This document shows positions 20,774-40,116 of a stretch of DNA of 64,000 nucleotides, in pieces. The notes beneath the pieces are model-generated. The model did not search any database and was not told the origin of the DNA. It was given only the letters and a program-made list of their open reading frames with translations. The stretch lies in IMG/VR virus record IMGVR_UViG_3300043464_002149; one strand, written 5' to 3'. The DNA is from a virus (taxonomy: Duplodnaviria; Caudoviricetes). The first letter of the stretch is position 1, and each line of letters begins with the position of its first letter. The position numbers and the translations under genes were made by a program.

Positions 20774-20980
20774 TTATTTTTTTAACCCGAATTTTATCCA
20801 TTTATACCAAACCCTTTCATGTAAAAAATATATAATTGGTTTTAATACAAGTTCACCTAAACCAACCATACCAGCCCACTTTAATGGTAGTCCAGCAGAT
20901 ACTGTTAAGATTATTGTAGTTAAAGTACCTACAAATCTGTAACTAATACTTTTAGCTATGTGTCGTTTTACCTGTGGCAT
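20774..20980 (-). CDS. DUF2061-like small membrane protein
   Basis: KSISYRFVGT...YFLHERVW signature. Confidence 0.8.
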   Translation of the reverse strand: MPQVKRHIAKSISYRFVGTLTTIILTVSAGLPLKWAGMVGLGELVLKPIIYFLHERVWYKWIKFGLKK

Positions 20981-21748: not shown

Positions 21749-21751
21749 ACA

Positions 21752-21775
21752 TATAATATAATGGTTTTTTTTGAA
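21752..21775 (-). promoter_or_regulatory. Putative promoter upstream of cysC
   Basis: TTCAAAAAAAACCATTATATTATA is nearly identical to TTCAAAAAAAATTACTTATATTATA at about 4427-4451. Confidence 0.45.
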
Positions 21776-21784
21776 AAAACAAAA

Positions 21785-22930: not shown

Positions 22931-23871
22931 TAAATTATTTTCTTATTAAATTTACCAATTTCTTTTTTATATTCATCAACCCTATATTTTCTATATTCTT
23001 CGTTAAGTTTTAATGCGTGTTTATTAAACCATACATGTTCATAATTTAAATTTTCAACGTGGTCTATTCTGTTGGGGTCTTTCAACCAAAATAAAGCTTT
23101 ACCTGGTGCTGGTGCATCACCTATAGTGTGTGATTCAGAATATGACATATATATATTATTCTCAATACTCTCCACTTTAGCGTTTAACTTTCTAATAGCA
23201 TAACCTAGTATTCCTTGATCTGCAATTAACCATAACCATTCTGGAATATACTCATATTCTCTTGTGATTATATCTAAATGTCTTCTTAAATAATCGTCCC
23301 TTAATGACTCACTATTCATAAAAATAAATGATGTATTTGGTATAAACATGTTTTGATTAAAATCTTCAATTCCACCAATTCTATTAATTTGATTTTCAAA
23401 AACAAAAAACTCGCCTCTTTGAATTTCCCATTGTGTATGAACCAAATCGTAATTCCACACCCAACTAGGCATTTCACTTCTAACAATGAAATCTAAATCT
23501 AGAAATAGATATGGTACTGGCTCTTTACCCATAACAATAGATTTACCGGTAGTCCAAAATCTACCCGGTTCAATGTATGAGTATTCTTTATTGAATGTTT
23601 CTAAAACATCCGTATCTACTTCATCCCATAATCCCAACATTCCTTTTTTCTTATAAAATTCATACCCAACATTATCAGTGTATAATTTTGTTACCCCTAC
23701 ATACTTTTTCGCGTTTCTTACTGCTAATTCCTGTATAACTAATTCATAATCAACAATATCATATTCATCGTCGGGTAAATCAAACATTTTCATTCTATTA
23801 TACCCTTGAGCATCATTCTTGTGAAAAAATGGTGCGGTCCAATTAACAAAGATTACTTTTAAATTATTCAT
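22930..23871 (-). CDS. DUF6734-like DxD protein (putative transferase)
   Basis: KLYTD, W..GK, PYLFLDLDF, ADQGIL. Confidence 0.5.
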   Translation of the reverse strand: MNNLKVIFVNWTAPFFHKNDAQGYNRMKMFDLPDDEYDIVDYELVIQELAVRNAKKYVGVTKLYTDNVGYEFYKKKGMLGLWDEVDTDVLETFNKEYSYIEPGRFWTTGKSIVMGKEPVPYLFLDLDFIVRSEMPSWVWNYDLVHTQWEIQRGEFFVFENQINRIGGIEDFNQNMFIPNTSFIFMNSESLRDDYLRRHLDIITREYEYIPEWLWLIADQGILGYAIRKLNAKVESIENNIYMSYSESHTIGDAPAPGKALFWLKDPNRIDHVENLNYEHVWFNKHALKLNEEYRKYRVDEYKKEIGKFNKKII

Positions 23872-24565
23872 GTATAAAATATAAGTCTTGTTTTAAATCA
23901 TTGGTTTTATATAAAGGTACCCCCGAATTTAAAATTGATATACCTATTATTAAACCCTCACCTCTACCTAATGGTTTGTTATTAAATTTAACATCATTAT
24001 TGTTTATTTCTTTTTTTAAACAATTAAAAATTTTAAAAAAGTCATTCAGCTTTTCATCTCTACTAATAACGAAAAATCTTTCACCAATTAATTTAGCATC
24101 GTTAATTTTTAAATTATTTTTTTTACAATGATTTTCAATATGATCAAAATAATCATCTTTAATGATGTTCTTAAATTCTTGATATATTAAAGGGATTTCT
24201 AACCAATCTTCAGTATAATAAATCCCTGGGTTAAATTTTGCTTCACAGAAGTTATCAATATTTAATGTGATATCAGAATCAATATATAATATCGTCTCAT
24301 ATTTTTTTAAAGCGATTTCACAAATCAATAATTTATCCGTATAAGATTTGTCTACTTCAGTATACAGGACAATGATAACATTTAAGTCCTTAAACTCTTC
24401 TGGACTGTCAGTTAAAACAAGAATATCTACTGGGTAAGATTTATAGGTCTTAATATTTTTAATCGCCAAATCAATATAATAATTGTCTTCTTCTTTTTCT
24501 ATTATACCATTTTTAACTAATGGAGATTTAAATACAAATAAACAAATAGCTTTATTCATAATCAA
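23864..24565 (-). CDS. Putative GT-A fold glycosyltransferase
   Basis: ILVLTDSP, YTDK, ILYIDSD DxD motif, GEG; paralogous to 41686..42429. Confidence 0.5.
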   Translation of the reverse strand: MIMNKAICLFVFKSPLVKNGIIEKEEDNYYIDLAIKNIKTYKSYPVDILVLTDSPEEFKDLNVIIVLYTEVDKSYTDKLLICEIALKKYETILYIDSDITLNIDNFCEAKFNPGIYYTEDWLEIPLIYQEFKNIIKDDYFDHIENHCKKNNLKINDAKLIGERFFVISRDEKLNDFFKIFNCLKKEINNNDVKFNNKPLGRGEGLIIGISILNSGVPLYKTNDLKQDLYFIHE

Positions 24566-25133
24566 TTTTATGGTTTTGTATTAATGTTAAGCTTTGCCCA
24601 ACCAAAACATCTCTTCGCCCATCTGTAACTGGTTTTATAAAATGTGGGTGTGTCAATCCACCTGGAAAGATAATAATATCACCCAATTCTAAATTATAAG
24701 AAATGTCTTGTCTTGGAAAACAAAGTTCGCCACCTTTAAAATTATTATTAAGTAAACCAACAAATGTTAAACCACTAAAATCCCAATGAACATTCTTTTC
24801 TGAAAAAATTGTATTGTCTCTATAATAATGTAATAAAAACATATCCCTCCATTTTGTTTTAACAAAATCTTTTATATTTTTTATTGTTTCGTGAGACGCG
24901 TTTAATCCAATACCATTTTCAATATCATAAATTTTTAGGTAGTCGTCTAAAAGCGGATATTCAATATTATTGAACCAAAAATCATTAATTTTATAAAATA
25001 AACTCATATCAATTTTATCTACATCAATCCTATCAATACCACCAATATTATCACGAACTAATAATAATTCATCAATAATAGATTTTGGTATTATAGATTT
25101 AAAAACGAAAATATCTGAATCTATTTTTATCAT
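24552..25133 (-). CDS. 2OG-Fe(II) oxygenase (lysyl/prolyl hydroxylase-like)
   Basis: HWD...NNNFKGGELCFP...GDIIIFPGGLTHPH...GRRDVLV. Confidence 0.8.
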   Translation of the reverse strand: MIKIDSDIFVFKSIIPKSIIDELLLVRDNIGGIDRIDVDKIDMSLFYKINDFWFNNIEYPLLDDYLKIYDIENGIGLNASHETIKNIKDFVKTKWRDMFLLHYYRDNTIFSEKNVHWDFSGLTFVGLLNNNFKGGELCFPRQDISYNLELGDIIIFPGGLTHPHFIKPVTDGRRDVLVGQSLTLIQNHKIDYE

Positions 25134-25844
25134 TTATATTTCAATATTAAAATTAATTACACATCTATGGGTTTTACCATAGAATGGTTTAACTGAATGT
25201 ATAATATCAGCCGGCCACATCATTAACATACCTTTTTTAGGTCTTATAAAGTGAGACATTCCTCTGATATGAAACGTAAAAACACCACTGTATGGATGAT
25301 CTGCGATTGGCTCACCATCTGATAAATAATATCCACCAACAAAACTTAAAGGTGCTGATTCATAAATAGACCACCTACAATGGTTGTGTTGATTATGTCC
25401 TCTTCCAGAAGTTGGCTCATAATATTGTATCCAACTTTCTGTCACCTTTGGGTTGTTGTTATGTTTAAAATTTAATAAATTTAAAAAATCAATAAAACCA
25501 TCTGTACATCGTTTCTTAATTAGTTTAACACATTCTTCTTCTCTATCTAAAAACTCATTTGTGGGCACAAGAAAACGACTACCTATTGGGTTGAATTCTG
25601 TCGGTTCAACCCATTTATCATGTTTACCATAATTTATTTCATATGTACTTTGTCTATCCTGATCATATTGTTCAGGTAATTCTTGCCCCATTAATTTTTG
25701 TTCGGGTGTTAACTCATTAAACCCTAAATTATAAACCAAATCATGTAAATCATGATCATCAAATTGTTTCATGTATACTGGTATGGGGGCTAAAAGATAT
25801 AGATTGTCTTGACCGCTTGGCCAAAGTGGATTGTGAAAATACAT
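25134..25844 (-). CDS. 2OG-Fe(II) oxygenase-like protein (TIGR02466-like)
   Basis: ESWIQYY...HNH...PKKGMLMMWPADIIHSV...RCVINFN. Confidence 0.7.
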   Translation of the reverse strand: MYFHNPLWPSGQDNLYLLAPIPVYMKQFDDHDLHDLVYNLGFNELTPEQKLMGQELPEQYDQDRQSTYEINYGKHDKWVEPTEFNPIGSRFLVPTNEFLDREEECVKLIKKRCTDGFIDFLNLLNFKHNNNPKVTESWIQYYEPTSGRGHNQHNHCRWSIYESAPLSFVGGYYLSDGEPIADHPYSGVFTFHIRGMSHFIRPKKGMLMMWPADIIHSVKPFYGKTHRCVINFNIEI

Positions 25845-27037
25845 TAGCTTAATTTTAAAATATTATATGTTATTGGGAATATATCTTTAAATTTTTGATC
25901 CCTAGATTCATCTAGTAAATTATTTATTTTAATAAATGAATTCCAGTCCTGTTCTGTTGATTCTTTACTATTAAGGTATTGCGTAATATTTGTAAATTGT
26001 TCTTTAATTTCTGGGCTTTTTACCGGTAAACTATTATAAGATTCATTAACATATTTTTCAATATCTATTTTTAAGTTTTCTGGAATATTGTTTATGCAAT
26101 AGTATTTTGGTTGTGATAAAAAGTTACAATGTATTCGAATATTATTCTCAATTGCAAATTCAGCGACTTCGTTAAAATCTAGGACATTCATAATTGAAAC
26201 TGTGTAACAAATATGAAACTTGAAATTTTTTAAATCTTTTGTTTTATCTAACCATAATAAAATATTATTTTTTACTTCATTCCAGTTTGCACCATATCTT
26301 AAATAATTAAATTTATCACCAACACCGTCTATACTAAATGAAATATCAGAAAGCTCAAAGTTTTTTAATATTTTAAAATATTCATCTTTAAAAATAGTAC
26401 CATTAGTGTTAAAATGAACATACTTATTTTTAGCAATACCAGTATATACACATTTTTCTAAAATGGACCATTGTTTTTTCATTAACATTGGTTCACCACC
26501 ATATAGATCAAGTATTTTTACTGATGATATATTTTTTTCAATTTCATCCCAAACCATACTGTCGTCAGCAAATGGTAAAGAACAAGATTTTGTAATCTGA
26601 TTTAGTTTTTCATCTGAAATATCTGGGTTTAGAACTGATTTATGTTCTTTTTTCCAGTTTGAAGATGAATATACATTACAAATTCTACAGGATAAATTAC
26701 ATATGTTACCCATGTTAAGTTCTAAAAAATGAATTTCGTTTTCTGATAAATTTAAATGTGAAATTCTTTGATTATCTCTCATCCTTTTACTTTCAACCCC
26801 AGAATCTTCTAAATCCCAACAGCCGTTACATTCGGGAGATTTAATTCCTTTTTTAAAATCTTCTTTTATTTTTTTTAATGTGGGAGATTGTTGTGCTTCT
26901 TGAAATGTGGTGTTTAAAACACTCATAACATTATCCCCATCATCTTTAAGATACACTTCACTTGCAATACAACATGGTGTAAACTTCCCGTCTGTTGTTA
27001 CTCTCAAACCATTAGTTATGTTTGCACACTTAATCAT
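25844..27037 (-). CDS. Radical SAM protein with N-terminal twitch/SPASM-like domain
   Basis: N-terminal C...PCC...CNGC, then CNLSCRIC and GGEP. Confidence 0.9.
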   Translation of the reverse strand: MIKCANITNGLRVTTDGKFTPCCIASEVYLKDDGDNVMSVLNTTFQEAQQSPTLKKIKEDFKKGIKSPECNGCWDLEDSGVESKRMRDNQRISHLNLSENEIHFLELNMGNICNLSCRICNVYSSSNWKKEHKSVLNPDISDEKLNQITKSCSLPFADDSMVWDEIEKNISSVKILDLYGGEPMLMKKQWSILEKCVYTGIAKNKYVHFNTNGTIFKDEYFKILKNFELSDISFSIDGVGDKFNYLRYGANWNEVKNNILLWLDKTKDLKNFKFHICYTVSIMNVLDFNEVAEFAIENNIRIHCNFLSQPKYYCINNIPENLKIDIEKYVNESYNSLPVKSPEIKEQFTNITQYLNSKESTEQDWNSFIKINNLLDESRDQKFKDIFPITYNILKLS

Positions 27038-27038
27038 A

Positions 27039-28061
27039 TTATATTGTTAAATTATGTCTTATTCTTTCAGTTTTTGGTAGCTGATTATATATTTCCAAGA
27101 GATTAGAATATTCAGGGTGGTTTGGATTACCAATATCTGTTTTTTCAAAATGTTCGGGGGTATATGTCCCCCAATTAACAACCCTATTATAAAAAACTGA
27201 CCAGTTCTTCTTTTTCATTGAGAATATATTTTTAACCATGTCATAGAATAACCCCATCTCTTTATAATTTTCATATTGAACAACAAAAGATAGTGTTATA
27301 TCGTGTAGATATGGTAAACTAGAAATGAAATCTAGGTTACTTTGTATATCTTCCCATTTACCTCCGATTCTAACTTTATTCTCATATGTTTCTTTAGTCG
27401 CTGAATCAACAGATATCTCACAACTACGCACGTATTTGTGAATGTTTTTCATTCTTGACCAGTTAGAATCATTCCATAATGTTCCGTTGGTGTGTAAATG
27501 TATCTTTTTAAGTTTTGGGTATTTGTTAAAATCGAAACCCATCATCCATTTTCTAAATGTTCTAGAAAAAAACGGGTCGCCAGATCCTGTACATTCAATA
27601 TGTTCTAAACCGTTACTTAATTCTTTTTCTATGTGCTGTATTAATTGTTCGGTCCTTTCTCTTTCTTCACCTTCATAATTAATAAATTTGGTTCTACACG
27701 ATGGGCACTTTAGGTTACAACTTTGATCAAAATTCATTTTGATACTGGTTGGAAGACCGGTATCGTATTTTTCTCTATTTTTTAAAAACTCATCTTTTTT
27801 AACAAAACCATGTGTTTTACCTTCTTTAAGACCGGTTAGTTTAGGACATCTTGATTCAATACAAAATTTATAGGAACCATCTAACATACTTTGTCTAACC
27901 TGTTCCGCAATATCTGATTTCCAATTAGTTTCAATAGACATTGGGTCACCCAAATTAACAGGTAACCAATTAGGACAACACATAAATGTTTTATGGTCAA
28001 ATAACTCTGAAAAGTTAAATGGTTGTGTACATACCCAATCTTTCTTATCTAATGGTATCAT
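27039..28061 (-). CDS. Radical SAM protein with N-terminal twitch/SPASM-like domain
   Basis: CTQPF...MCC...C...CP, then CNLKCPSC and GSGDPF. Confidence 0.9.
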   Translation of the reverse strand: MIPLDKKDWVCTQPFNFSELFDHKTFMCCPNWLPVNLGDPMSIETNWKSDIAEQVRQSMLDGSYKFCIESRCPKLTGLKEGKTHGFVKKDEFLKNREKYDTGLPTSIKMNFDQSCNLKCPSCRTKFINYEGEERERTEQLIQHIEKELSNGLEHIECTGSGDPFFSRTFRKWMMGFDFNKYPKLKKIHLHTNGTLWNDSNWSRMKNIHKYVRSCEISVDSATKETYENKVRIGGKWEDIQSNLDFISSLPYLHDITLSFVVQYENYKEMGLFYDMVKNIFSMKKKNWSVFYNRVVNWGTYTPEHFEKTDIGNPNHPEYSNLLEIYNQLPKTERIRHNLTI

Positions 28062-29371
28062 GTTAAACTTGGATAGCCTTTTTTCTCCATTAAAAATGTC
28101 TTATCATCAATTGTAGATTCAATCTCATCAAACCAATCTTTATACTGTGGATTTACTTCTAAAAATGACTCATTTCTTCTATTATCTAATATATATGTTG
28201 ATCTAAATAAGTGTCTTCTGGCATCTTGAATATCCCCTTCAAATGGTGTATACAAGTGTTTTTCCCAACCATCCTTTGCTTGTTTAACAATACTTCTAGT
28301 ATAACTGTCACCAATTGTTTCTATGTAGGTATTCAGTTTATTAATCAAACTAGTTTTTAAGTTATCTGGTAAAATTCTAATATCATACCACATCGGAGAT
28401 GTTAATAAATTATTTAAAGAAACCGTACTAGGGTTGACGCCAATACTTATAGCCATATCAATTAATTCATTGATGTGAAATATGTTTAAGATACTAATTG
28501 TGGGAGATATGTGGACTTCCATTCCTTTATCAACACAAGATTTAATGTTTTGATAAACCGCATTCCATTTTGTTCCATTTCTAACAACTTCAGCTAATTT
28601 ACCAACAGCATCTAAAGAAGCGAATAGAAAAATTCTACCTTTTGGATCTTTTAAGAAGTGATCCCATAAACCATGTAAATCCCATTTTTTAAAATGTATA
28701 TGGCTGAAATTTGTGTTGTATCTAATTCTAACATCAGTTCTACCTGCAGCTATTAATTTTTCCAAAATAATATAATGTTCATCCATTATAAGCGGCTCTC
28801 CACCAGCAAAATAAATTTCTTCAACCTCATTTATAAATTGATCAACATATTTGAATATATCTTCTTTACTATCAATATTAAAATTGATCACCCCGTTGTT
28901 ATTTACGTGAGTTCCAAATAGTGCAGCTTCATCATCATACCATTTACTACTGGAAAATATGCCACACATTCTACACTTAAAATTACACATATTGGACCAT
29001 CTGAAATCCCAATATTTTAGTACGAACTTATCATTATGCCCAGTTTCCTTATTTGTCTGGCTTATTAATTCATTAATACCATCATTGAAAAAATAGTTAT
29101 GTGTTTTTCTTGGGCTTAATAAACCGCTATCCTCAATTAAAAAACATCTTTCGCATAGTTTAGGTCTGTTACCGGATAACATATCTTTTCTAATGCTCAT
29201 CATCTGTTCATTGTTCCAGATTTCTTCTAATGTATTATCTTTAGTATTCCCTATAGGCATACCATATGGTGCCATACAGCAAGGGTATATGTCACCATTG
29301 GGTTGTATATTTAAATGTATCCAAGGTAGTACACAAAATGTGTTTGATATATTTTCTGAATTATTAATCAT
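28058..29371 (-). CDS. Radical SAM protein with N-terminal twitch/SPASM-like domain
   Basis: CVLPW...PCC...CERC, then CNFKCRMC and AGGEP. Confidence 0.9.
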   Translation of the reverse strand: MINNSENISNTFCVLPWIHLNIQPNGDIYPCCMAPYGMPIGNTKDNTLEEIWNNEQMMSIRKDMLSGNRPKLCERCFLIEDSGLLSPRKTHNYFFNDGINELISQTNKETGHNDKFVLKYWDFRWSNMCNFKCRMCGIFSSSKWYDDEAALFGTHVNNNGVINFNIDSKEDIFKYVDQFINEVEEIYFAGGEPLIMDEHYIILEKLIAAGRTDVRIRYNTNFSHIHFKKWDLHGLWDHFLKDPKGRIFLFASLDAVGKLAEVVRNGTKWNAVYQNIKSCVDKGMEVHISPTISILNIFHINELIDMAISIGVNPSTVSLNNLLTSPMWYDIRILPDNLKTSLINKLNTYIETIGDSYTRSIVKQAKDGWEKHLYTPFEGDIQDARRHLFRSTYILDNRRNESFLEVNPQYKDWFDEIESTIDDKTFLMEKKGYPSLT

Positions 29372-30603
29372 ATTATTTTTTTATTTAAAATATCTTTTAT
29401 TTTTGGGAACGTTTGTAGGAAGCTTTCACTTCTTATTTTATCAACTTCGCTTGTTACTTTTAAAAACGTGTTCATTTCTCCATTCTCTTTAGCATTGTAA
29501 TAAACACTATACAAATCATTATAATATTCATCACTAATTTTACCTTTTATTTCATCTATTTTTTTTCTTCTTACCTCTATTGGAAATAAATTAGCATTTT
29601 GATATGCTGGTGAAAAGACATGATTAGGAACTAATCTATATATTTTTCCAGTACCATCTAATTTATACAATCCCTCTGCAATTAGAAATTGAGCTAGTTC
29701 TTCAATATATAAAAAATTGAAAGCATTAACCGTTTGTGTAACTGATATATAAAAATCATATTCGTTTAGAAATCTTTTTAAGTTTGTTATTGTAAGCTCC
29801 CAATTACTTAAACTTCTAATAAAAGTGTTTCTATCTTTAACATCATCGATACTAACAGATATGGTGACATTGTTAAATGATTTTAATTTTTCTAACGTTG
29901 GTTTAATTGAATCAAAATTGTAATTAGCATTGGTTATGTAAGAAATTGTGGCATTTTTTGCGTACCCCTCACCAACCATTTTTTCTATCAGATAGTTGTG
30001 TTTTGGTACAAGAAATGGTTCACCACCACTAACCTGTATTAAATTTAAATCTGGGGTGTGTTTTACCAAATCGTCATAAAATTCTGCTTTGTCAGTCCAA
30101 TCATAACTTGTCCCCTCACTGTTTTTTAGAACATCATATGATGAAGGTAATGGTACAATATCTTTTAATTTATAATAATCCGTAATCCACGATGTACTCG
30201 ATTCAGCATTACAGGATCTGCATTTAAAGTTACAGTAATTACCCAGCCTTAATTCAACGTTCGTTAGATTTGGTTTAATGCTACCATCTTCATTTATTGA
30301 AATGTCAATAGGTGTTCTGGATTCCTTAATTCTTTTTGATATGTCGCCGTTCTGTTCTACATTATAACAAGTTAAACAAGCTTTAGGTATTTCACCATTT
30401 ACCATTTGCTTTCTAACTTTTTTAAAACTATCGGAATTGATAATTTTTTCAACACCTTGTTCAATGTTAAGCATTTTACCGTCTGTTTTAGCGAAAGTTT
30501 CATCAGCCCCCCAATTAGCTTCACAACATACAGAACAATGACCATGTGGGTGTACACTAATGTGGTTCCATAATAAGTTGCATATGAATTTTTTATTTTC
30601 CAT
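29368..30603 (-). CDS. Radical SAM protein with N-terminal twitch/SPASM-like domain
   Basis: CNLLW...VCC...CLTC, then CNFKCRSC and SGGEP. Confidence 0.9.
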   Translation of the reverse strand: MENKKFICNLLWNHISVHPHGHCSVCCEANWGADETFAKTDGKMLNIEQGVEKIINSDSFKKVRKQMVNGEIPKACLTCYNVEQNGDISKRIKESRTPIDISINEDGSIKPNLTNVELRLGNYCNFKCRSCNAESSTSWITDYYKLKDIVPLPSSYDVLKNSEGTSYDWTDKAEFYDDLVKHTPDLNLIQVSGGEPFLVPKHNYLIEKMVGEGYAKNATISYITNANYNFDSIKPTLEKLKSFNNVTISVSIDDVKDRNTFIRSLSNWELTITNLKRFLNEYDFYISVTQTVNAFNFLYIEELAQFLIAEGLYKLDGTGKIYRLVPNHVFSPAYQNANLFPIEVRRKKIDEIKGKISDEYYNDLYSVYYNAKENGEMNTFLKVTSEVDKIRSESFLQTFPKIKDILNKKII

Positions 30604-30606
30604 AAT

Positions 30607-31947
30607 CTATAATCTATTAAACCAAGTAATAAATTCGTTTGGCATGTATTCATCAATTGGCTTATTTCTTCTTATTGAATATTGATAAACGAATTTCTTT
30701 AAATCGTTTACTTTGTTTTCTCTACTGTCACTATCTTCATAAGACACGTCCACTTGTCTTAGGTATAAGACCAACCTCTCAAAATGATTTACTTCCCATT
30801 CTTCCATCCACGGTTTATTAAGATTAACCACAGATTCGATTTTACTTGCCAAGTCATTTTTGATATCCTGATCAATCATATTAATACTTTGAAAAGATGG
30901 GAATCTTAAAATGTTTACACTCATTGAGAATGTATGAATGTTATTGAATTCTTTTCTCCACTTTATAATTTCTTTTAAAAATAGATCAACAGTCCATATA
31001 CTTAAAACGCTGATAGTCATCATGATATTTAATCTTCTAACTTTTTTAGACCTCTCAACTTTAAACATATTTTCTTTCCACAAATCCCACTTAAATCCGT
31101 CTCTAACAAATTCCTGGTGTTTACCAAAACATTCTGCAGATGTATATATGTCTAATGATTTAAACTTATCAGATGAGTTAAGTAACTTATAAAGTCTTTC
31201 ATCATCCATAATGAGATTACTATTAACAGCAAAATCAAATTTATCATTATTACAAACGTCCAATAATTTCCAAAAAGACGGGCTTCTAGAAGGTTCTCCA
31301 CCGGATACCCGTAATTCTAATAATTCACCTCTAATTTCATCAAACCAATTAAAAAAATTATTTATATAAATGTTGTCTTCGTTTTTATTACCAAACGGCA
31401 TAGCGATCGACCCATCACTTTTATATGTTAATCCTCCATTAGTCTTCATCCCTTCATATTCCCCGTTAGTTAAAATATCTTTAGACCAGGTGGAACTAAA
31501 TTCTGAATTACAGTAACTACAAGCCAAATTACAAAGGTTATCAAAACAAATTTCAACAGTTTTAGGAATAACATTAGCATCCCACGGCATTGTTTTTATT
31601 TTTTCAATATCCTCCTTTGTATATCTAGATGTTTGATACATCCTATCGCTAAAAATATTTGGATTATCCTTTGCAGCATCTTCAACTCTCCAACAATATG
31701 AACATTCACTGGGTCTAATCCCGTCTAACATTTCTTTTCTTCTTTCTTTCTTGAAATTGGTGTTGTGTAATGCTGAAGGGTTATTATTTAGTTCTTCCAG
31801 TGGAATTGAATGTGCTAAAGGATGGTGACAAGACGCAGTCCTACCATTACCTAACCATATAGACACATTATACCACTTTGCAGCACAAAAAGATGAGGAA
31901 AACTCATCCATTAATTTTTTTATTTCAGTATATGGTATGTTAGACAT
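30607..31947 (-). CDS. Radical SAM protein, CxAKW...SCHHP subfamily
   Basis: CAAKW...SCHHP...CSYCW, then CNLACSYC and SGGEP. Confidence 0.9.
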   Translation of the reverse strand: MSNIPYTEIKKLMDEFSSSFCAAKWYNVSIWLGNGRTASCHHPLAHSIPLEELNNNPSALHNTNFKKERRKEMLDGIRPSECSYCWRVEDAAKDNPNIFSDRMYQTSRYTKEDIEKIKTMPWDANVIPKTVEICFDNLCNLACSYCNSEFSSTWSKDILTNGEYEGMKTNGGLTYKSDGSIAMPFGNKNEDNIYINNFFNWFDEIRGELLELRVSGGEPSRSPSFWKLLDVCNNDKFDFAVNSNLIMDDERLYKLLNSSDKFKSLDIYTSAECFGKHQEFVRDGFKWDLWKENMFKVERSKKVRRLNIMMTISVLSIWTVDLFLKEIIKWRKEFNNIHTFSMSVNILRFPSFQSINMIDQDIKNDLASKIESVVNLNKPWMEEWEVNHFERLVLYLRQVDVSYEDSDSRENKVNDLKKFVYQYSIRRNKPIDEYMPNEFITWFNRL

Positions 31948-32588
31948 TAAATGATCTTCTGTTTTGGCGCAACATTATTAAATGTGTCGATTGATTTATT
32001 AACATATTTTGGATCTTCAATTAAAATTCCATGGTTCCCATTACCACTTTTATCAAAGGTTTTAAATTTAGAATTTTGTTGGAAATCAATATTAATATAC
32101 ATATTTTTCTTTGTATAATCAAATGATGAATCATATATTATTATTTGATTGATCTCCCCGTTAAACCATTTTTCATTTTCATTATTATACGGATAAAGAG
32201 CGCCAATTAGTATCTTTTTATTTGAATAATCAACAATATTACCCTTAATTTTTGAGTCCATTAATATATCATTGAAATAAAGACTAATATACTCAGAAAC
32301 AGTCACTTTTATATCCATTATTTGTCTAATATCATCAACTACAAATCTAACATCATTGTAGATGTGTCCTGTTGTATACCAAACAAACTTAACAATATTT
32401 GGGAACTCTAAAAATAGCCCCATAGGGTAACCGTCTTTAGAGATCACACAAGATTCATTCTCGATAAAATCAATTAACTTAAAATTAGCGTGTATTGTAA
32501 AATCATTCTCTATTGAGGAATAATCTTTAATATTCGTATTATTCTTTGTTTTATTTGGAATGAAATATGATGTTTTATTGAATATCAT
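31947..32588 (-). CDS. LamG/concanavalin-like domain protein
   Basis: IGA...WFNGEINQIIIY...DKSGNGNHG. Confidence 0.65.
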   Translation of the reverse strand: MIFNKTSYFIPNKTKNNTNIKDYSSIENDFTIHANFKLIDFIENESCVISKDGYPMGLFLEFPNIVKFVWYTTGHIYNDVRFVVDDIRQIMDIKVTVSEYISLYFNDILMDSKIKGNIVDYSNKKILIGALYPYNNENEKWFNGEINQIIIYDSSFDYTKKNMYINIDFQQNSKFKTFDKSGNGNHGILIEDPKYVNKSIDTFNNVAPKQKII

Positions 32589-33957
32589 GATAAAATTTTT
32601 CTAGCTCTGGGAAAGTTTTAACGAAGTTTGTGCCTCTTCTTCTGTCATGTTCATCGACAAAAATTTTAAAATCTTTCTTATTTGTTTTTAACCATTCTTC
32701 ATCTTCCTTAACCAACATCCAGTCATGGATTCTATTTAGTTTATTGATTTCAATATCTGTAAAACCAAAACCATCCATACCAACTCTAACTTGTTCATAA
32801 AAATCCATTAATTGCGCTTGTTCTTTTACTTCTTTTATCCAATAATCATCTACGATTTTAACGGTCTGATACTCTGGGTATCTAAGGTATGAAGAATCTA
32901 AAATAATTGACGATCCATAGTATCTATAAGGATTATGGTATTCCTCTTTTAATTTATATACGTTTTTAATTAGTTCTTTATAATTTGGTATTGACAACGC
33001 ATTATATGTTGACATAATAATGATTGTAAGTGATGGGATCTCTTTTAATAAGATATTAATTCTATCCCAAACCAAATTAAAGTTCATCCCATTTCTAATA
33101 TATTCTGCCTGTTTTCCCCATGAATCTACACTAGTGAAAAGAATCACTTCATTAACCCTACCTTCATCAATTATTCTTTTTATTTTATTTAAAAAATCAT
33201 TAAATAACTTATCTGGTGCACCCAAATTGGTGTTTAAGGATAAATTTAAATTTTTATTTGGGTTGGGGTTTTCTATAATATAATCTAAAACCTTAAATGT
33301 GTCTTTAGATAGTAGTGGTTCTCCACCAGTAATTCTAAATGTGTGTAAATCTCTGTATAATTCTGGCCACCACTTCCAAAATGATTCAACATATGGGTTA
33401 TACTCATTGTGTGGAATTGGCATTTTGTTTTCGGCTTTTAACCAATCAAGATTACCAAAATCATTTGATGTTGGGTATTTACCATGTTGTAATATTTCTT
33501 GCATCCACTGTGACGAATATGATGGGCCGCAGTATGAACACTTGTAGTTACAATGATTACTAAAGGAAACTTCAACATACTTGGGATTGTAGTTTTCATC
33601 CCAATTAAGGTTTTTTATTTCATTAAGAAACGGCTTAGACCAGGGCTCAGATGATTTATAGGTTCGATCTGAAAATGCGTTAGACGAGTCTTCAATATTC
33701 CAACAGTAACCACATTCTTTCGGTTTCCCACCCTCTAACATCAACTTTCTTTGTTCCTTTTTGAACTGCGTGTTATGCAATGCGGATGGGTTATTACTTA
33801 ATTCATCCAACGGTATAAAATGTGGCGAGGGGTGATGACACGAATGAGTTTGCCCCATTTGTAAATGTAGCGTAACCTGTGTCCATTTCGCTAAACAAAA
33901 CCCACAGCCAACTGAATTCAATTCTTTTCTGGTCTTATCAAAAATTTCATTTAGCAT
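32575..33957 (-). CDS. Radical SAM protein, CxAKW...SCHHP subfamily
   Basis: CLAKW...SCHHP...CGYCW, then CNYKCSYC and TGGEP. Confidence 0.9.
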   Translation of the reverse strand: MLNEIFDKTRKELNSVGCGFCLAKWTQVTLHLQMGQTHSCHHPSPHFIPLDELSNNPSALHNTQFKKEQRKLMLEGGKPKECGYCWNIEDSSNAFSDRTYKSSEPWSKPFLNEIKNLNWDENYNPKYVEVSFSNHCNYKCSYCGPSYSSQWMQEILQHGKYPTSNDFGNLDWLKAENKMPIPHNEYNPYVESFWKWWPELYRDLHTFRITGGEPLLSKDTFKVLDYIIENPNPNKNLNLSLNTNLGAPDKLFNDFLNKIKRIIDEGRVNEVILFTSVDSWGKQAEYIRNGMNFNLVWDRINILLKEIPSLTIIIMSTYNALSIPNYKELIKNVYKLKEEYHNPYRYYGSSIILDSSYLRYPEYQTVKIVDDYWIKEVKEQAQLMDFYEQVRVGMDGFGFTDIEINKLNRIHDWMLVKEDEEWLKTNKKDFKIFVDEHDRRRGTNFVKTFPELEKFYHDIQ

Positions 33958-33960
33958 TTT

Positions 33961-34542
33961 CTATATTTTATGTAAGAAGTTACAATTGTTTGTTAAATCG
34001 TAACTTTTATTGTGTATAAACTTATCAAATGTATGCTCCGATATTAATACATCATCTTTCTTAATAGATAGATAAGAAAGAACACCATCAAAGTAATTTA
34101 AATTGAAACCATTCTTGGGAAAATTACCGGAACCGAAAATGATATGTGGTCTTTCATCACTAACCAACTTTGTACTCAAATCAATATCAAATAATAACTC
34201 ATCATTTATAGATAGTTTTATATTAAAACCACTTTTTATTATTTCTAAGCTATATTTTTTATTTGGCACCCATTGATAATTTTTGGTTAAATATTTTGTA
34301 TCATTTCCTTCCTCACTATAAACCATCAACAAACCGTGGCTTTCAATATCAATCCCAAAATATGTTGGTAACTTAGCGAACAGAGTCATTTTTTCATTAA
34401 CAATGTTAGATAATTTAAATTCCAATGAAAAATTGAAATCACCTTCGTAATCAAATATTTTATTACTTGGGTATTCAATAAAATTATCGACAAGAAAGTC
34501 TGGCCACATTACCCAAATATTATCTTTATTTATTTTTAACAT
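33961..34542 (-). CDS. LamG/concanavalin-like domain protein
   Basis: FNFSLEF...IIFGSG...YFDG...YDLTNNCN. Confidence 0.55.
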   Translation of the reverse strand: MLKINKDNIWVMWPDFLVDNFIEYPSNKIFDYEGDFNFSLEFKLSNIVNEKMTLFAKLPTYFGIDIESHGLLMVYSEEGNDTKYLTKNYQWVPNKKYSLEIIKSGFNIKLSINDELLFDIDLSTKLVSDERPHIIFGSGNFPKNGFNLNYFDGVLSYLSIKKDDVLISEHTFDKFIHNKSYDLTNNCNFLHKI

Positions 34543-35908
34543 CGTTATATAAGCTTTTTAATTGTGGGAAAGTTGAAATGAAATCTGTTCCCCTTCTTTC
34601 ATCATATTCGTCAACAAATGCTACGAAATCTTTTCTGTTTTGTTCAACATCAAAGGTATCATCATTCGCTATTGCATAATCATAAATTCTCTTTATTTTT
34701 TGTACCTCAACATCTGAAAACCCAACATTGTCATAATTAAATTCTGGGGTAGCATAATAAAACGCTTTTTTTGCCGACTCTAAAATAAGTTCTTTATGTT
34801 CTTTATCTAAAATCTTCACAGATAAATGTTTAGGCCATCTTAAATAAGAAGTATCTAACTGTATTGCAGAAATCCAATATCTAAGATCGTTAGCATGTTT
34901 TTTCTTCATAAGAAATGTTTGTTCTATAACATCACTGTATGTAAAGACAGATAACGCATTAAATGTTGCCATAACATTAATTGTTACTTTGGGTAGCTTT
35001 GTTAATATTTTATCTACATTCAACCAAAATTTTTCATAATCTAGACCGTATCTAACATATTCCGCTTGTTTATCTTTTGCCTCAACTGAAGTAAAAATAA
35101 TTAATTCTTTCACTTTATTATTATCACATAAATCTTTAGCAATTTCAATAAACCTATCTATTAAGTTATCCGGAACACCTAAGTTACTATTAATCGCCAA
35201 TGACAAATTAGGATTATCCTCCCAATTTGTTTGAATATATTCTAAAACCTTAAAGGTATCTTTAGCTAATAATGGTTCACCGCCGGTAATTCTAAATGTG
35301 TGTAGATCTTTATATAAATTTGGCCACCATTCCCAAAACGCCTCTAGATATGGGTTATGTTCTGAGTGTTTATATGGCATTTCTTTTTTCGCCTCTAATT
35401 CTTTAATGTTGTTATAATTGGTTGATGTTTTATAACCACCAAACTTTTCTATCTCCTCAACCCATTTCGAAGAATATTGAGGGCCACAATATGCACATTT
35501 GAAATTACAAGTATTAGAAAAAGAAACTTCGACATATCTTGGGTTAAATTCTTCTCGCCAATGAGACTCTTTTATTTGCTCAAAATATGGTAATGACCAT
35601 GGTTCGGATGATTTAAAAACACGATCAGAAAAATTATTACTGTTGTCTTCTATATTCCAACAATAGTTACATTCTTTTGGTTTCCCCCCTTCCATCATTT
35701 CCTTTCTTTGCATCTTTTTATAACGAGTATTATGTAATGCTGATGGATCTCTTTTTATCTCTGCTATCGGGATTTTATGTTGAGCTGGGTGGTGGCAAGA
35801 GTGTGTTAAACCAATACCTAAATGCATGGTAACTTGTGTCCATTTTGCTAAACAAAACCCACAACCAACACCATCTAATAACTCTTTTGTGTCTTTAAAA
35901 TTATTCAT
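34526..35908 (-). CDS. Radical SAM protein, CxAKW...SCHHP subfamily
   Basis: CLAKW...SCHHP...CNYCW, then CNFKCAYC; close paralog of 32575..33957. Confidence 0.9.
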   Translation of the reverse strand: MNNFKDTKELLDGVGCGFCLAKWTQVTMHLGIGLTHSCHHPAQHKIPIAEIKRDPSALHNTRYKKMQRKEMMEGGKPKECNYCWNIEDNSNNFSDRVFKSSEPWSLPYFEQIKESHWREEFNPRYVEVSFSNTCNFKCAYCGPQYSSKWVEEIEKFGGYKTSTNYNNIKELEAKKEMPYKHSEHNPYLEAFWEWWPNLYKDLHTFRITGGEPLLAKDTFKVLEYIQTNWEDNPNLSLAINSNLGVPDNLIDRFIEIAKDLCDNNKVKELIIFTSVEAKDKQAEYVRYGLDYEKFWLNVDKILTKLPKVTINVMATFNALSVFTYSDVIEQTFLMKKKHANDLRYWISAIQLDTSYLRWPKHLSVKILDKEHKELILESAKKAFYYATPEFNYDNVGFSDVEVQKIKRIYDYAIANDDTFDVEQNRKDFVAFVDEYDERRGTDFISTFPQLKSLYNDVKNK

Positions 35909-37102
35909 TTAAAACATTATTTCAATCCATGGACAGATTTCTTTGTAATCAGTATTCCTCATACTATCTAATTTTTCCAAGTATTCTTTTAAATCATTTT
36001 TAGTTTGATTACCCCTTATTATCGATGAGTCAATTTTTAAATGATTAATAAAATCATTCATTATTGATACCGTTTTACTATAGTATTCTTTTTTACTTAA
36101 ATTTTCATTTATGTAATCAATTACTTTATTTTTAAATTCTGTTGGTGCCGCACCTACCGCAAACCAGTAAGGTGTTGTCGCCCAGTGAATGTGTATCAAA
36201 TCTTTTTTAGTATAGTTGTTATCTAAAACATAATCAATAAAGTCAAAGGTATGAAATACATTCATCATTGTGATAGTATATTCAATTTCAGCATTAACAT
36301 TTGGGTGTGTTAAATTGAAATCCGCAATTTTTTTGATATTATCAAAGAACTTTTCAGAGATGAATCCAGTTCTCTGAAACTCACCAACCTTTCCGTATCC
36401 ATCACATGAACACCCAATTATTACGTTTTTGAATTTTTTTAATGCTTCAAGAATATCAATTTGTTTATATTTTAAATTCGATAAATTAGAATTTATATAA
36501 ACATTAATATTCTTTGCTTGATCTTCACTAAATCTATCAATTAGTTTGAATACATCTTCATTAATAAACGGTTCGCCTCCAGCGATATAAAGATGTTCAA
36601 TATAATTTAAATCTTCATCAGAAAATTTATTAACTGGGTCTTCACCAATCTTATAATGCTTACTATAAAGGTTGTTCATACCAACACCATAAATTTCAAT
36701 CAAATCATCAAGCCACGACGATGATAATGTTGGGCCACACATTCTACATTTAAAATTACATAAGTTGGAAAATCTCACGTCCAAATACTGTAACTTATTT
36801 ATAGAATAATCTTCATTAAACAATTCTGGATCATCAAACTTTTCTTTCCAGTTATTATTCCAAACATCTTTTAGGGTGTTACCCTTTTTAAAACAAATAT
36901 CACATGGTTTAGGGGTTATACCATTATCCATGTCTTCTCTTAGTTTTTTGAATTGTTTACTGTTTAATAGATCCATTACATTATCATAATCGGACCACAG
37001 TAATTTTTCTTCAAAATTATCAGCAACACAACAAGGTCTAACTAACCCATCTGGGTTTACATACAAAGAAGTATATGCTAAAATACATTGAGTATCTTTC
37101 AT
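35909..37102 (-). CDS. Radical SAM protein with N-terminal twitch/SPASM-like domain
   Basis: CILAY...PCC...CDIC, then CNFKCRMC and AGGEP. Confidence 0.9.
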   Translation of the reverse strand: MKDTQCILAYTSLYVNPDGLVRPCCVADNFEEKLLWSDYDNVMDLLNSKQFKKLREDMDNGITPKPCDICFKKGNTLKDVWNNNWKEKFDDPELFNEDYSINKLQYLDVRFSNLCNFKCRMCGPTLSSSWLDDLIEIYGVGMNNLYSKHYKIGEDPVNKFSDEDLNYIEHLYIAGGEPFINEDVFKLIDRFSEDQAKNINVYINSNLSNLKYKQIDILEALKKFKNVIIGCSCDGYGKVGEFQRTGFISEKFFDNIKKIADFNLTHPNVNAEIEYTITMMNVFHTFDFIDYVLDNNYTKKDLIHIHWATTPYWFAVGAAPTEFKNKVIDYINENLSKKEYYSKTVSIMNDFINHLKIDSSIIRGNQTKNDLKEYLEKLDSMRNTDYKEICPWIEIMF

Positions 37103-38496
37103 TTCATTTTACAATTTATAAATTTTGTGTTAGGGTATGTTAAATCATCAATATTATCTATTTCCAAAACATTTAATATTTGTGATAAACCATCGTTTTT
37201 ATATTCTATTTTTTTCTGTTGCATTTCTGTAACAAACCTTTTTTCATTTCTAGCTGTTGTTTCCCCCTTTGCCCATTTTCCATTTACAAACCCTTCATCA
37301 ATATGAGGTAAACAATAGAACCTACTATCTCTACGATATGGAATAACATTTTCAATCACTTCAATATCTTCTTTAGTGAATTGTACATTTTGATTTATAA
37401 AAGCCACATTATTAAAATCAGAATTTAAAATCAAATTGTCGGTATTTTGATCCATCTCTTTTATATTGTCAAAAAATCTATTATAAATTTTAACATCTGA
37501 GATTTTACCTTTGTAATAAACATTTGAATGGTTACAAAAACCGATTAAAAAAGGTTTGATAGCATCATGCGTTTTTAAATCATTACCAATTGAGAACGGT
37601 GTGTTTTGTTTTACCCCATTCATTTGACAAATTAGTTCATCATTTACATAAAAGTACACTTTTTTCTCCTCACTATTAAAACTTAATGTTACTTGTGTCC
37701 ACAACCCTTCAAACCTCTTAGCCCAGTTATAGTGATGCATACCATTTCTGTCAAATAATTGCATTGTTACTGCTCTAGAATTATTGAAAGACATTCCCCA
37801 AGTCCAGCTACCATCTTTTCTAATTAACGGGTATTCAACAAAAATTCTTTGTTCATCACCAACAAGCCAAATAGGTACTTTATCATTTTGTTGTTCAGCA
37901 TTAAAGGTTATTGTAATTGTATGGTCATTATGTAAACACGAACTTATTTCTCTACTCGTAGGGAACGTTAAAAAAGAATTTGAACCATTAAAGTTAGCAA
38001 CAATCTTATCGGTTTCTTTTCTAATAACTCTACCGGTTGTTAAACCTTCAAAATAACATCTCCAAAATAAATCATCATCTTCTTGCCCCCAATCCCAATA
38101 ATCATTTGAATAACCATTGGTTGCTTCCGTTTGCTCCTTATTGAAAAGGACGACACCACCAAAGTATTGATCATAACCTAAGTTATAACCATATTTGGAA
38201 AGTTTTGTTGCTATGTGCATTGGTGTTTGATCTGGATAAGAATAATCAGCTTCTTCTTGTGGTAACATATCTACATCATGCCACGCTATATAATCACATC
38301 CGTCTTCGAATGCTACATGTGCTGCAATATTTTTCATTGCCCCCCTATTAAATAATTTATCATCAATCTGATGACCGACATAAAACGAATGGTTAATACC
38401 CCTTTCATTTAAATGATTTGATAAATGTGGTATTAACCTATCAATATGTTCTTTTCTGTTTCTATATGGTATACAAATACCTAATTTATGCGTCAT
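37099..38496 (-). CDS. GT7 (beta-1,4-galactosyltransferase-like) glycosyltransferase with inserted LamG domain
   Basis: IPYRNR, FNRG, HDVD, FGGV, GYSN.YW.WGQEDDD; then a LamG-like insert; then the GT7 C-terminal part (PYRRDSRFYCLPH). Confidence 0.85.
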   Translation of the reverse strand: MTHKLGICIPYRNRKEHIDRLIPHLSNHLNERGINHSFYVGHQIDDKLFNRGAMKNIAAHVAFEDGCDYIAWHDVDMLPQEEADYSYPDQTPMHIATKLSKYGYNLGYDQYFGGVVLFNKEQTEATNGYSNDYWDWGQEDDDLFWRCYFEGLTTGRVIRKETDKIVANFNGSNSFLTFPTSREISSCLHNDHTITITFNAEQQNDKVPIWLVGDEQRIFVEYPLIRKDGSWTWGMSFNNSRAVTMQLFDRNGMHHYNWAKRFEGLWTQVTLSFNSEEKKVYFYVNDELICQMNGVKQNTPFSIGNDLKTHDAIKPFLIGFCNHSNVYYKGKISDVKIYNRFFDNIKEMDQNTDNLILNSDFNNVAFINQNVQFTKEDIEVIENVIPYRRDSRFYCLPHIDEGFVNGKWAKGETTARNEKRFVTEMQQKKIEYKNDGLSQILNVLEIDNIDDLTYPNTKFINCKMK

Positions 38497-39920
38497 ATTC
38501 CTACATTAACGTGTAAAATTTTATTATTATGTGTTTTACCATGTTCAATGAAATTTAAATCAGATAAACCATCTTCTTTCATTAAATGGGTGTTTAGTGA
38601 AACTTCATTATGAAACCTTAATTGGTTCCACCTTGTTGCTTGATCTTTCCAACGGTTCCCTAAAAAACCATTTTCTTCATGTTTTAAAGATTTGAATAAA
38701 GATCTTCTTCTATAAGGTATTTTTACTTCTTTATAGTTAGTATATTCTTGACTTATTATTTCGCAATTCACTATTTTACCATCATTACCATTATTTGTTA
38801 AATCTTTTAATTTGTAATTTTCGATATGATCCGCTTCATAATATATTTTAAGCGAGTTTTGTGAATGATATTTTCCAAATGATTCGTTTAAATAATGATT
38901 TGTATTATATGATAATTCTTTAATTTCTTCATCACTTAACATTTCATCATAATAAGCAAAAGAATCTATTTTCCCTTTAAAAAAATTAGGTATCTTCTCT
39001 CTGTCTGGTTTACCCACACCTAAGTAAAAATTTGGTTCTTTTCTGTAAAAATATAATTTTTTAAATTGTTCGGTTTGACCTAAAAATTCACCGTCTTGAT
39101 ATACTTTAATTATATTGTTTTCTCTATCTAAAACAATCACCATATTTGTTTTATAGTTTGTTTTGATTTTGGAATTAATGAAGTATGGATTATATGAGCT
39201 ATCAAAAGCACAAAAATTATATCTCATAAATGAATTGTAGCAAATAGCAAAATCCCAACCAGGAATGCTAAACACAGTAAATTCATCAGATTCTTTGGTA
39301 TGATCCAAAACAATTTTTTCTGGATAAAATGAAATAAAAAAAGTTGCATTATTATTTAAATCTATTGTGTTTTTACATTCAACATATGCATCAACACCAT
39401 TAAACATTAACGCTTTATCACTCTTAGTCAAGTTTTTAAATTCAAGAGTATCTAAATCTAAACCATTTACTACACATCTTAATAAAAGTTCTGTATCTTC
39501 ATAACCCCACCCCCAATACTTGTTTGAGTATCCGTTAATTTTTTCGAAATCTTCAATGGTAAACATCGTAACCCCACCAAAATATTCATCAAATATTTCT
39601 CTCTTTTTCTCACCTTCTTCTAGTTTAAAATCAGTTGCAAGATGTAATGGTTTTTTTGAATATGAATAATCAACATTTATTGGTAACATATCAACATCAT
39701 GAAAAACAATGTAGTCACAATTTAATATTTTTGCATAGGTATATCCTATGTTCAATAACATACCTCTATTAAATTGTTTAGCATTGTCCTGATTAATTAC
39801 TATAATCTCATAGTTAATTTCCTTATTTTTAAAATACTTCGCCATGTGACTTGAAAATAACCTCAAATCACGCTGTCTGTTTCTATAAGGAACTATGATA
39901 CCAAGTTTGTGTTTATCCAT
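38493..39920 (-). CDS. GT7-like glycosyltransferase with inserted LamG domain
   Basis: VPYRNR, FNRGMLLN, HDVD, FGGV, GYSNKYWGWGYED; LamG insert FNGVD...FKGKID...LTNNGNDG. Confidence 0.85.
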   Translation of the reverse strand: MDKHKLGIIVPYRNRQRDLRLFSSHMAKYFKNKEINYEIIVINQDNAKQFNRGMLLNIGYTYAKILNCDYIVFHDVDMLPINVDYSYSKKPLHLATDFKLEEGEKKREIFDEYFGGVTMFTIEDFEKINGYSNKYWGWGYEDTELLLRCVVNGLDLDTLEFKNLTKSDKALMFNGVDAYVECKNTIDLNNNATFFISFYPEKIVLDHTKESDEFTVFSIPGWDFAICYNSFMRYNFCAFDSSYNPYFINSKIKTNYKTNMVIVLDRENNIIKVYQDGEFLGQTEQFKKLYFYRKEPNFYLGVGKPDREKIPNFFKGKIDSFAYYDEMLSDEEIKELSYNTNHYLNESFGKYHSQNSLKIYYEADHIENYKLKDLTNNGNDGKIVNCEIISQEYTNYKEVKIPYRRRSLFKSLKHEENGFLGNRWKDQATRWNQLRFHNEVSLNTHLMKEDGLSDLNFIEHGKTHNNKILHVNVGI

Positions 39921-40116
39921 TAATAGTAGGGTCTTTTGGTTTTGTTGTGTCGTGCCACTCGGATAAGTAATATTGAATTCTATCGCTCCATTCCTTTTTA
40001 TCTATTTCTTCAAACCAAATCGTTAGTGCATCTAATGAATTAGCGATCTTTTCAAGTGCTTTTACTTTTCTTTCTTCTAACTTTTGAAGTTGTTCTTCTT
40101 TTTCTGATTTTGTCAT
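39913..40116 (-). CDS. Hypothetical protein (67 aa)
   Basis: Co-oriented ORF overlapping both neighbours. Confidence 0.55.
   Translation of the reverse strand: MTKSEKEEQLQKLEERKVKALEKIANSLDALTIWFEEIDKKEWSDRIQYYLSEWHDTTKPKDPTING

Follow-up and report, generated by a model that had tools for sequence, protein, structure and literature searches.

What would a phage do with eight genes for radical S-adenosylmethionine (SAM) enzymes packed into 11 kb? The question is raised by a stretch of 64,000 nucleotides of viral DNA (IMG/VR record IMGVR_UViG_3300043464_002149; Caudoviricetes), here called the window, in which the genes r1 to r8 lie between positions 25844 and 37102. All eight are intact and under selection, seven of them belong to a catalogued family with an N-terminal twitch domain, and they are found next to a conserved set of glycosyltransferase genes. 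On balance, we favour the view that r1-r8 supply the radical chemistry with which a phage glycan cassette tailors its product.

The genes are all encoded on the negative strand and lie close together, separated by -17 to +3 nt; two open reading frames (ORFs) of 193 and 213 aa that do not encode radical SAM proteins are interleaved. Family membership was judged with the NCBIfam model NF033640 (N_Twi_rSAM, twitch domain-containing radical SAM protein), which has a curated cut-off of 170 bits. Seven of the eight products pass it with 269-368 bits over approximately model positions 1-398, and their E-values of 1e-80 to 1e-110 rule out a chance match. These are r1 (25844-27037, 397 aa, 292.8 bits), r3 (28058-29371, 437 aa, 368.4 bits), r4 (29368-30603, 411 aa, 301.1 bits), r5 (30607-31947, 446 aa, 269.4 bits), r6 (32575-33957, 460 aa, 338.7 bits), r7 (34526-35908, 460 aa, 331 bits) and r8 (35909-37102, 397 aa, 285.7 bits). 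The product of r2 (27039-28061) is short, 340 aa, and scores 57.8 bits, below the cut-off, and 36 bits with Radical_SAM. Judged by its sequence, it is a divergent relative and not a certified member of NF033640.

The CxxxCxxC motif is invariant in an alignment of r1-r8 and is also present in 226 of 226 proteins from related viral loci. The SAM-binding motif GG(E/D)P is kept as well, in r2 in the form GSGDP. Pfam places a SPASM domain (PF13186) N-terminally, ahead of Radical_SAM, in r3 (residues 13-76, 56 bits), r4 (residues 8-80) and r8 (residues 6-70), and likewise in r1 just below threshold. Two types can be told apart by their N-terminal motifs. Type A, C...CC...CxxC, comprises r1, r3, r4 and r8, plus r2 with Cx4C in the twitch, and type B, C(A/L)AKW...SCHHP...CxYCW, comprises r5, r6 and r7. 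The alignment, NF033640 and Pfam thus bear out a preliminary description of this DNA, which had reported eight ORFs with an intact CxxxCxxC and an N-terminal Cys cluster, five of the first type and three of the second. None of the eight carries the C-terminal Cys motif of the seven-Cys, two-cluster SPASM domain (PF13186/TIGR04085); apart from the SAM cluster, the conserved Cys number just four, all of them N-terminal.

Which residues hold the auxiliary cluster was examined in an alignment of 364 family members from viral loci, bacterial loci and library representatives. Four N-terminal Cys (C13, C32, C73 and C76 in r3 numbering) are found in at least 94% of the members of every group. In type B the first Cys of the CC pair is replaced by Ser, and this is the sole change among the N-terminal Cys. 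By this alignment, the four-Cys set for one predicted auxiliary 4Fe-4S cluster is present in both types; in r7 the candidate ligands are C19, C38, C80 and C83, and the His pair is H39 and H40. The His pair of SCHHP, which is invariant in 24 type B proteins (alignment A4), had been proposed as a possible ligand of the auxiliary cluster. Because the four Cys are conserved in both types, the His pair is not needed for this, and it probably has some role other than cluster ligand.

Are the copies all in use? The eight-gene array is found with the same order and lengths in three other contigs, L002 (a 216-kb NCBI record), L004 and L005 (JGI). Two orthologous arrays were compared with the window by the pairwise Nei-Gojobori method (NG86); the proteins are 68-93% identical with unchanged lengths, and every copy gave a dN of 0.04-0.22 and an omega (dN/dS) of 0.015-0.11. 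The omega ranges were 0.06-0.10 for r1, 0.05-0.08 for r2, 0.06-0.07 for r4, 0.015-0.04 for r5, 0.02-0.03 for r6 and 0.03-0.04 for r8; all omega values are rough since dS is saturated (1.1-3.6), and two comparisons were not computable. All eight copies are clearly under strong purifying selection.

In a maximum-likelihood tree of 94 sequences, the paralogs of the window occupy separate, well-supported clades, each shared with proteins of other viral contigs. Thus r1 groups with loci L066 and L123, r2 with L066, L063, L056 and L076, r5 with L123, L066 and L063, r6 with L108 and L076, and r8 with L084. No two paralogs of the window are sisters, which rejects a recent tandem amplification; the closest pair is r6 and r7, both within the first type B clade. 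As read from the tree, the array is a set of old, separate ortholog groups and is not decaying. That each copy has its own ortholog clade fits distinct roles. The retention of eight divergent, intact paralogs, as first described, is therefore upheld by omega, identical lengths and separate clades, and the prospect that most copies are degenerate or neutrally evolving was checked by dN/dS and the tree, where all eight are constrained.

The neighbourhood of the array points to sugars. Upstream of r8 we found two genes, GT7b (37099-38496) and GT7a (38493-39920), whose products both match Pfam Glyco_transf_7N and Glyco_transf_7C with E-values of 1e-15 to 1e-21, which places them in CAZy family GT7, and both contain an internal LamG domain (Laminin_G_3). 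These are preceded by a gene for a GT2-like glycosyltransferase (40113-40964, 283 aa; Glyco_tranf_2_4, 28.4 bits) and one for a Methyltransf_24-type methyltransferase (40961-41707, 248 aa; PF13578, E 1.3e-12), the first gene of the core. All four are encoded on the negative strand.

We scanned IMG/VR with type B patterns, which gave at least 550 relatives, and kept 79 loci. Orthologues of the r7/r6 type are found in 79 of 79, a homologue of either GT7 in 77, the 283-aa GT2-like protein in 67 and the Methyltransf_24 protein in 61. The order is nearly fixed: methyltransferase, GT2, GT7, GT7, type B radical SAM enzyme, LamG-like gene and lastly a tail of variable content, made up of radical SAM genes (0-7 further cassettes) and others. 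In the window, r7 is the core enzyme of this module. Within 10 kb of the match there is one radical SAM copy in 19 loci, two in 25, three in 14, four in 5, five in 8, six in 4, seven in 1 and eight in 3; loci L056 and L057 carry one different eight-gene array. The enzymes of the 79 loci form 21 sequence clusters at 40% identity and 31 at 50%. From its gene content, the locus can be described as a conserved core with accessory cassettes, resembling surface-glycan loci.

A profile of the eight proteins found 6,746 library representatives (50% identity) at E <=1e-30. Double and triple radical SAM fusions of 800-1400 aa are frequent among these, which suggests that neighbouring paralogs cooperate. 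Three single chains of 1200-1466 aa (P0121, P0203 and P0184) have two or three N-terminal twitch radical SAM modules, and P0203 adds TPR repeats. Other fusions join the family to glycosyltransferases: P0185 consists of a GT7 domain and a radical SAM module, and P0198 of a radical SAM module and a GT2 domain. P0138, and 698-aa forms in several loci, have an N-terminal LamG-like extension on the radical SAM protein. The family is therefore tied directly to glycosyltransferases and LamG modules.

The SCHHP type B branch appears almost wholly viral; in the Atlas, the clusters nearest to r7 are 88-100% viral. Bacterial members are rare, with 3 of 301 sampled Bacteroidota genomes passing the family cut-off, and a single copy is present in each of five bacterial genomes (isolates and metagenome-assembled genomes) to which the loci led. 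Some bacterial members lie beside glycosyltransferase genes. Locus L025 has three radical SAM genes followed by GT2, GT2, GT1 and GT4, and G157 has four, followed by a methyltransferase-GT2 fusion and a GT22-like protein. The array of L028 is located beside glycosyltransferases, and in Synechococcus sp. 1G10 a GT2 gene adjoins the array.

The core enzyme has a probable partner. The gene for LamG193 (33961-34542, negative strand), a stand-alone protein with a LamG/LNS fold, overlaps by its start the stop of r7 by 17 nt, and the gene for LamG213 (31947-32588, negative strand), a second LamG-like protein, is located downstream of r6 and overlaps its stop by 14 nt. In the related loci, 61 pairs of a radical SAM gene followed by a LamG gene have a spacing of -46 to +3 nt. 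From this arrangement, the type B enzyme is predicted to be translationally coupled to the LamG protein. The AlphaFold2 (AF2) model of LamG193 has a pLDDT of 92, and Foldseek matched it to neurexin LNS, agrin and perlecan LG3 (E ~2e-7). For LamG213, a jackhmmer profile links to the LamG domain of GT7a and to the N-terminal extension of P0138, and its orthologue in L002 has a faint Laminin_G_3 match. The LamG partner is fast-evolving, with a mean column identity of 27%, compared with 68% for the enzyme (alignment A4).

Binding of r7 to LamG193 is supported by a complex model computed with two clusters and SAM included. The model scored 0.83, the best of three controls 0.00, and the runs had 100% contact agreement with a partner pLDDT of at least 91. 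In a benchmark, 58 of 80 solved complexes attain the same mark, as do 2 of 110 mismatched pairs, counts that are only a rough guide here since r7 and LamG193 were modelled with custom alignments and with riding ligands. The modelled interface is formed by residues 379-406 of r7, in the C-terminal helices, and by the N-terminal strand and conserved C-terminal motif of LamG193; G396, K404 and R407 of r7 are invariant in 24 partner-bearing enzymes. The end motif K-x-x-D-L-T-N-N-x-N is common to LamG193 and the close of the LamG insert of GT7a, which raises the possibility that the GT7 transferases may dock in a similar manner. In both GT7 proteins (37099-39920) LamG occupies approximately residues 190-340, between the 7N/7C core and a C-terminal stretch of ~130 aa, so placed that a lectin domain appears to be nested within the GT7 enzyme. 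The ~130-aa stretch has a D-G-L-S motif and, we take it, resembles the end of the GT7 catalytic domain of animal beta-4-galactosyltransferases.

How could such a cassette work? Sugar substrates are favoured because of the conserved GT7/GT2 neighbourhood and the fusions of glycosyltransferases with radical SAM modules. In brief, the core, made up of the methyltransferase, the GT2-like enzyme, the two LamG-bearing GT7 enzymes and the type B radical SAM enzyme with its LamG protein, probably builds a simple glycan from host UDP-sugars, and the LamG modules, which are lectin-like, probably direct the enzymes to one glycan or glycoprotein that they have in common. SAM would be cleaved at the CxxxCxxC cluster of each radical SAM enzyme, which would abstract one specific hydrogen from the sugar. 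The resulting sugar radical would be resolved with the help of the four-Cys auxiliary cluster as an electron relay, and the outcome, by analogy with BtrN, HygY/NeoN and AprD4, would be oxidation, epimerisation or deoxygenation of that position. The variable downstream set, here r1-r5 and r8, would add further distinct edits, so that different phages make different glycans. Among array neighbours with Pfam matches we found no genes of sugar-nucleotide pathways.

As target, the Ser/Thr-rich fibres of the phage itself, whose genes belong to the same run, are the likeliest candidate. The cassette is contiguous, with no gaps, with fibre and lectin genes, and the fibre ORFs are rich in Ser/Thr repeats; for these reasons we favour the virion as target, though at well below even chances. 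A 2533-aa fibre-like ORF (7860-15461, negative strand) has dozens of S-L-N-[ST]-[YF]-T-S-S repeats and is, from its composition, a plausible O-glycosylation substrate near the cassette; another fibre is 2027 aa long.

More tentatively, we speculate that the system performs lectin-guided "radical glycan editing", in which a minimal glycan made from host nucleotide sugars is rewritten in place by mix-and-match radical SAM enzymes with an N-terminal twitch. The enzymes would be docked through LamG, possibly in one assembly with GT7, and would act as epimerases, oxidases and deoxygenases on a glycan carried by fibre proteins or by another polymer. If this is true, it would be radical carbohydrate chemistry at the polymer level and would give viral surface diversity without encoding sugar-nucleotide pathways.

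Several points weigh against a role in glycan tailoring. The existence of a glycan, its attachment and the expression of the genes are presumed here from the sequence. The preliminary description had referred to the N-terminal twitch arrangement as a described family of uncharacterised function, and this agrees with the membership in NF033640; for this family, N_Twi_rSAM, or for an N-terminal twitch/SPASM domain, we found no functional study in the literature. The AF2 model of r3 (pLDDT 82) matched only generic radical SAM cores with Foldseek and VIA-align. BlsE had a Z of 12.6, and SkfB, viperin, CteB, anSME and MoaA approximately 11; as generic cores are tied at 11-12.6, the structure points to no sugar substrate. 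Most characterised SPASM/twitch enzymes act on peptides. A LamG fold is no proof of sugar binding, and in the bacterial loci L041, L043 and L006 the neighbours are uninformative.

Some of these points would suit peptide chemistry. In the best surviving alternative, which we consider rather unlikely, the enzymes are protein or peptide maturases that cross-link, epimerise or oxidise the fibres, the adjacent LamG proteins or the Cys/Trp tail of ORF 17066-18601. Most of the weak matches in NCBIfam are to peptide maturases (YhhB, XyeB, FibroRumin and SkfB), the structural neighbours include SkfB, CteB, SuiB and anSME, a small protein gene follows each core enzyme, and fibres are encoded in the same gene run. 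The small neighbour, however, is a well-folded LamG domain of 190 aa (pLDDT 92) and not a leader-core peptide, it is modelled as docking onto the C-terminal helices of the enzyme, and the fusion partners of the family are glycosyltransferases and not peptide-processing domains. Pfam gave no RRE-type match, an absence that is not proof.

The Cys/Trp tail deserves separate mention. The peptide with seven Cys and four Trp that had been put forward as a substrate is the C-terminal tail of a 511-aa ORF (17066-18601, negative strand) with no Pfam match. Only 1 of the 79 related loci has a homologue of this ORF no more than 10 kb from the array, and therefore it does not travel with the radical SAM genes, which also speaks against maturation of this tail. 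Of the original proposal that the paralogs catalyse distinct reactions on sugars or on this peptide, distinct roles are supported by the clades and sugars by the GT7/GT2 neighbours and fusions, but the link to the peptide is not.

A second alternative, which we consider quite unlikely, keeps the same chemistry and moves the target to the host envelope (lipopolysaccharide, capsule or S-layer glycan), remodelled in infection to block superinfection. Such remodelling has been proposed for glycosyltransferases of the pelagimyophage host-recognition cluster (PMC7029224). The bacterial homologues lie beside GT2, GT4 and a membrane GT22-like transferase, and the variable cassette content is like that of O-antigen loci. 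Against this, Pfam detected no flippase, polymerase or lipid-carrier transferase among the block proteins searched, several of which gave no match at all. The block also directly adjoins fibre and lectin genes, and radical SAM enzymes are confined to working in the cytoplasm.

It is very improbable that the enzymes and glycosyltransferases instead modify nucleotides or phage DNA, giving a hypermodified glycosylated base that evades restriction: the top Foldseek matches viperin (substrate CTP) and BlsE (sugar nucleoside), with MoaA (GTP) close, would suit it, but many unrelated radical SAM cores match equally well, the cassette is located in the fibre region and not in a nucleotide-metabolism region, no base-modifying enzyme was seen in the block, and DNA-modification systems are not known to contain LamG modules or GT7 enzymes. 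A precedent in its favour is the decoration of DNA with glycans by phage glycosyltransferases (Pyle et al. 2024, as cited in PMC12619734).

The block contains other genes of note. A possible sulfation set consists of a Sulfotransfer_2-like ORF (16182-16916), a second sulfotransferase-like ORF (15538-16185), an APS-kinase (21314-21748; Pfam match on the L002 and L004 orthologues) and a small nucleotidyltransferase-like ORF (20952-21317), all on the negative strand; in L076 and L078, homologues are found again downstream of the arrays, together with DUF6734. Within 18635-25844, several 2OG-Fe(II) oxygenase-like ORFs (19556-20212, 20212-20772, 24552-25133 and 25134-25844, negative strand) follow the array in the same gene run and may form a second, oxygen-dependent set of oxidative tailoring enzymes. 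The 95-aa ORF at 19269-19556 (negative strand) has six Cys, spaced as CxxC and CGPCGC. It matches no family and is found in only 1 of the 79 related loci; its product could be a small protein that binds metal or acts in redox reactions.

Many unrelated enzymes of the block (15538-40964, negative strand) end in a basic tail, K/x-[KST]-[ILT]-[IL]-I. Examples are r4 and 22930-23871 (...NKKII), LamG213 (...KQKII), and 19556-20212 and 20212-20772 (...KKTLI); among the eight radical SAM proteins, the tail is found in just one. A late-promoter-like box (TATTTAT or TATAAATA) within 40 nt upstream was found in the block only for 17066-18601, and for no radical SAM gene.

What phage is this? The G+C content of the window is ~30%, T4-like cyanomyophages are the nearest cultured relatives of several of its genes (~46% identity), and it encodes very long fibre-like ORFs. 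The stretch recurs nearly unchanged in lake-water and freshwater metagenome runs of 17 studies; for three of these, the sample may be the source itself. The source is an uncultured freshwater myophage, as the cyanomyophage-like genes, the fibre ORFs and the metagenome matches indicate.

A megablast search of the 11 kb array against cultured phages gave no match, and a tblastn search with GT7a found nothing. With r7, the sole tblastn match was Ralstonia phage RsoM2USA. This relative (L047; 217327-218748) is 38% identical to r7 and adjoins a gene of >2500 aa; we found no GT7 or LamG homologue within 12 kb of it, and all genes there are annotated as hypothetical. With r3, tblastn matched only distant genes of KVP40-like Vibrio phages, ~23% identical (135061-135921 in KVP40) and annotated as moaA, nifB or pqqE; these phages do not have the GT7-LamG core. 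RsoM2USA and the KVP40-like phages are possible distant experimental stand-ins. The core of GT7, radical SAM and LamG genes was found in no cultured phage of the collection searched, and this absence is the main obstacle to testing. The window itself is a clean testable unit, with a conserved GT7-GT7-radical SAM-LamG core and accessory cassettes under selection.

How does the array compare with known systems? The nearest is NF033640 itself, with the same layout of a four-Cys twitch module ahead of the radical SAM barrel in all eight; seven match it over the full model length. This family has been named but has no known reaction, and its bacterial members are mostly single-copy and rare, in contrast to the eight copies in this phage. 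With its 6,746 representatives, it is very large and apparently concentrated in uncultured aquatic phages. The sole literature match for an N-terminal auxiliary cluster was the tetraether synthase Tes, which belongs to a different family.

Sugar-acting twitch radical SAM enzymes are BtrN (2-deoxy-scyllo-inosamine dehydrogenase), the epimerases HygY/NeoN and the diol dehydratase AprD4 (see PMC10991966, PMC10337720 and PMC9012708). They combine a radical SAM core with one Cys-bound auxiliary 4Fe-4S cluster and act on carbohydrate C-H bonds, and they are our working model for the chemistry of the array. Their twitch is C-terminal, whereas that of the array enzymes is N-terminal, and they act on small aminoglycoside intermediates without a lectin subunit. 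We found no specific kinship in sequence or fold to BtrN, HygY or AprD4; in the fold search with r3, AprD4 had a Z of 7.6 and BtrN was outside the top rows.

The SPASM/twitch maturases and anSME (AlbA, SkfB, CteB, SuiB, PqqE and anSMEcpe) share with the array a radical SAM core and a SPASM-type Cys motif, with structural Z values of ~10-12. The array differs in its permuted domain order and in having four Cys, for one cluster, instead of seven. Unlike the maturases of ribosomally synthesised, post-translationally modified peptides (RiPPs), it has no RRE domain detected by Pfam and no precursor peptide that we could find, and it is glycosyltransferases and LamG domains that lie beside it or are fused to its relatives. 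If a lectin subunit guides a radical SAM enzyme, it would be a counterpart of the domains by which RiPP maturases recognise their peptides.

Self-decoration has a precedent in mycobacteriophages (Freeman et al. 2023, PMC10527164, as cited in PMC12619734), whose structural proteins are decorated by glycosyltransferases that the phage itself encodes. As that system is presented in the citing paper, no radical SAM or lectin modules take part, and for the present phage glycosylation of the virion is suggested from the genes.

A comparable setting is the host-recognition cluster of pelagimyophages and cyanomyophages (Zaragoza-Solas et al. 2020, PMC7029224). It forms a hypervariable island among fibre genes, in which glycosyltransferases and radical SAM "cassettes" vary between closely related phages. 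These are also T4-like aquatic myophages, whereas the present phage comes from lake water. The family had been catalogued, and radical SAM cassettes in such islands had been mentioned in print; that paper defines neither the family nor the GT7-radical SAM-LamG core, the partner protein or the fusions. If the enzymes edit sugars, this would be a new radical carbohydrate chemistry and would account, in T4-like aquatic phages, for a long-noted but unexplained component of their hypervariable host-recognition islands. What is distinctive in the window is a complete and selected set of eight genes, a defined core of GT7, radical SAM and LamG genes, and evidence for a unit of enzyme and lectin-fold protein.

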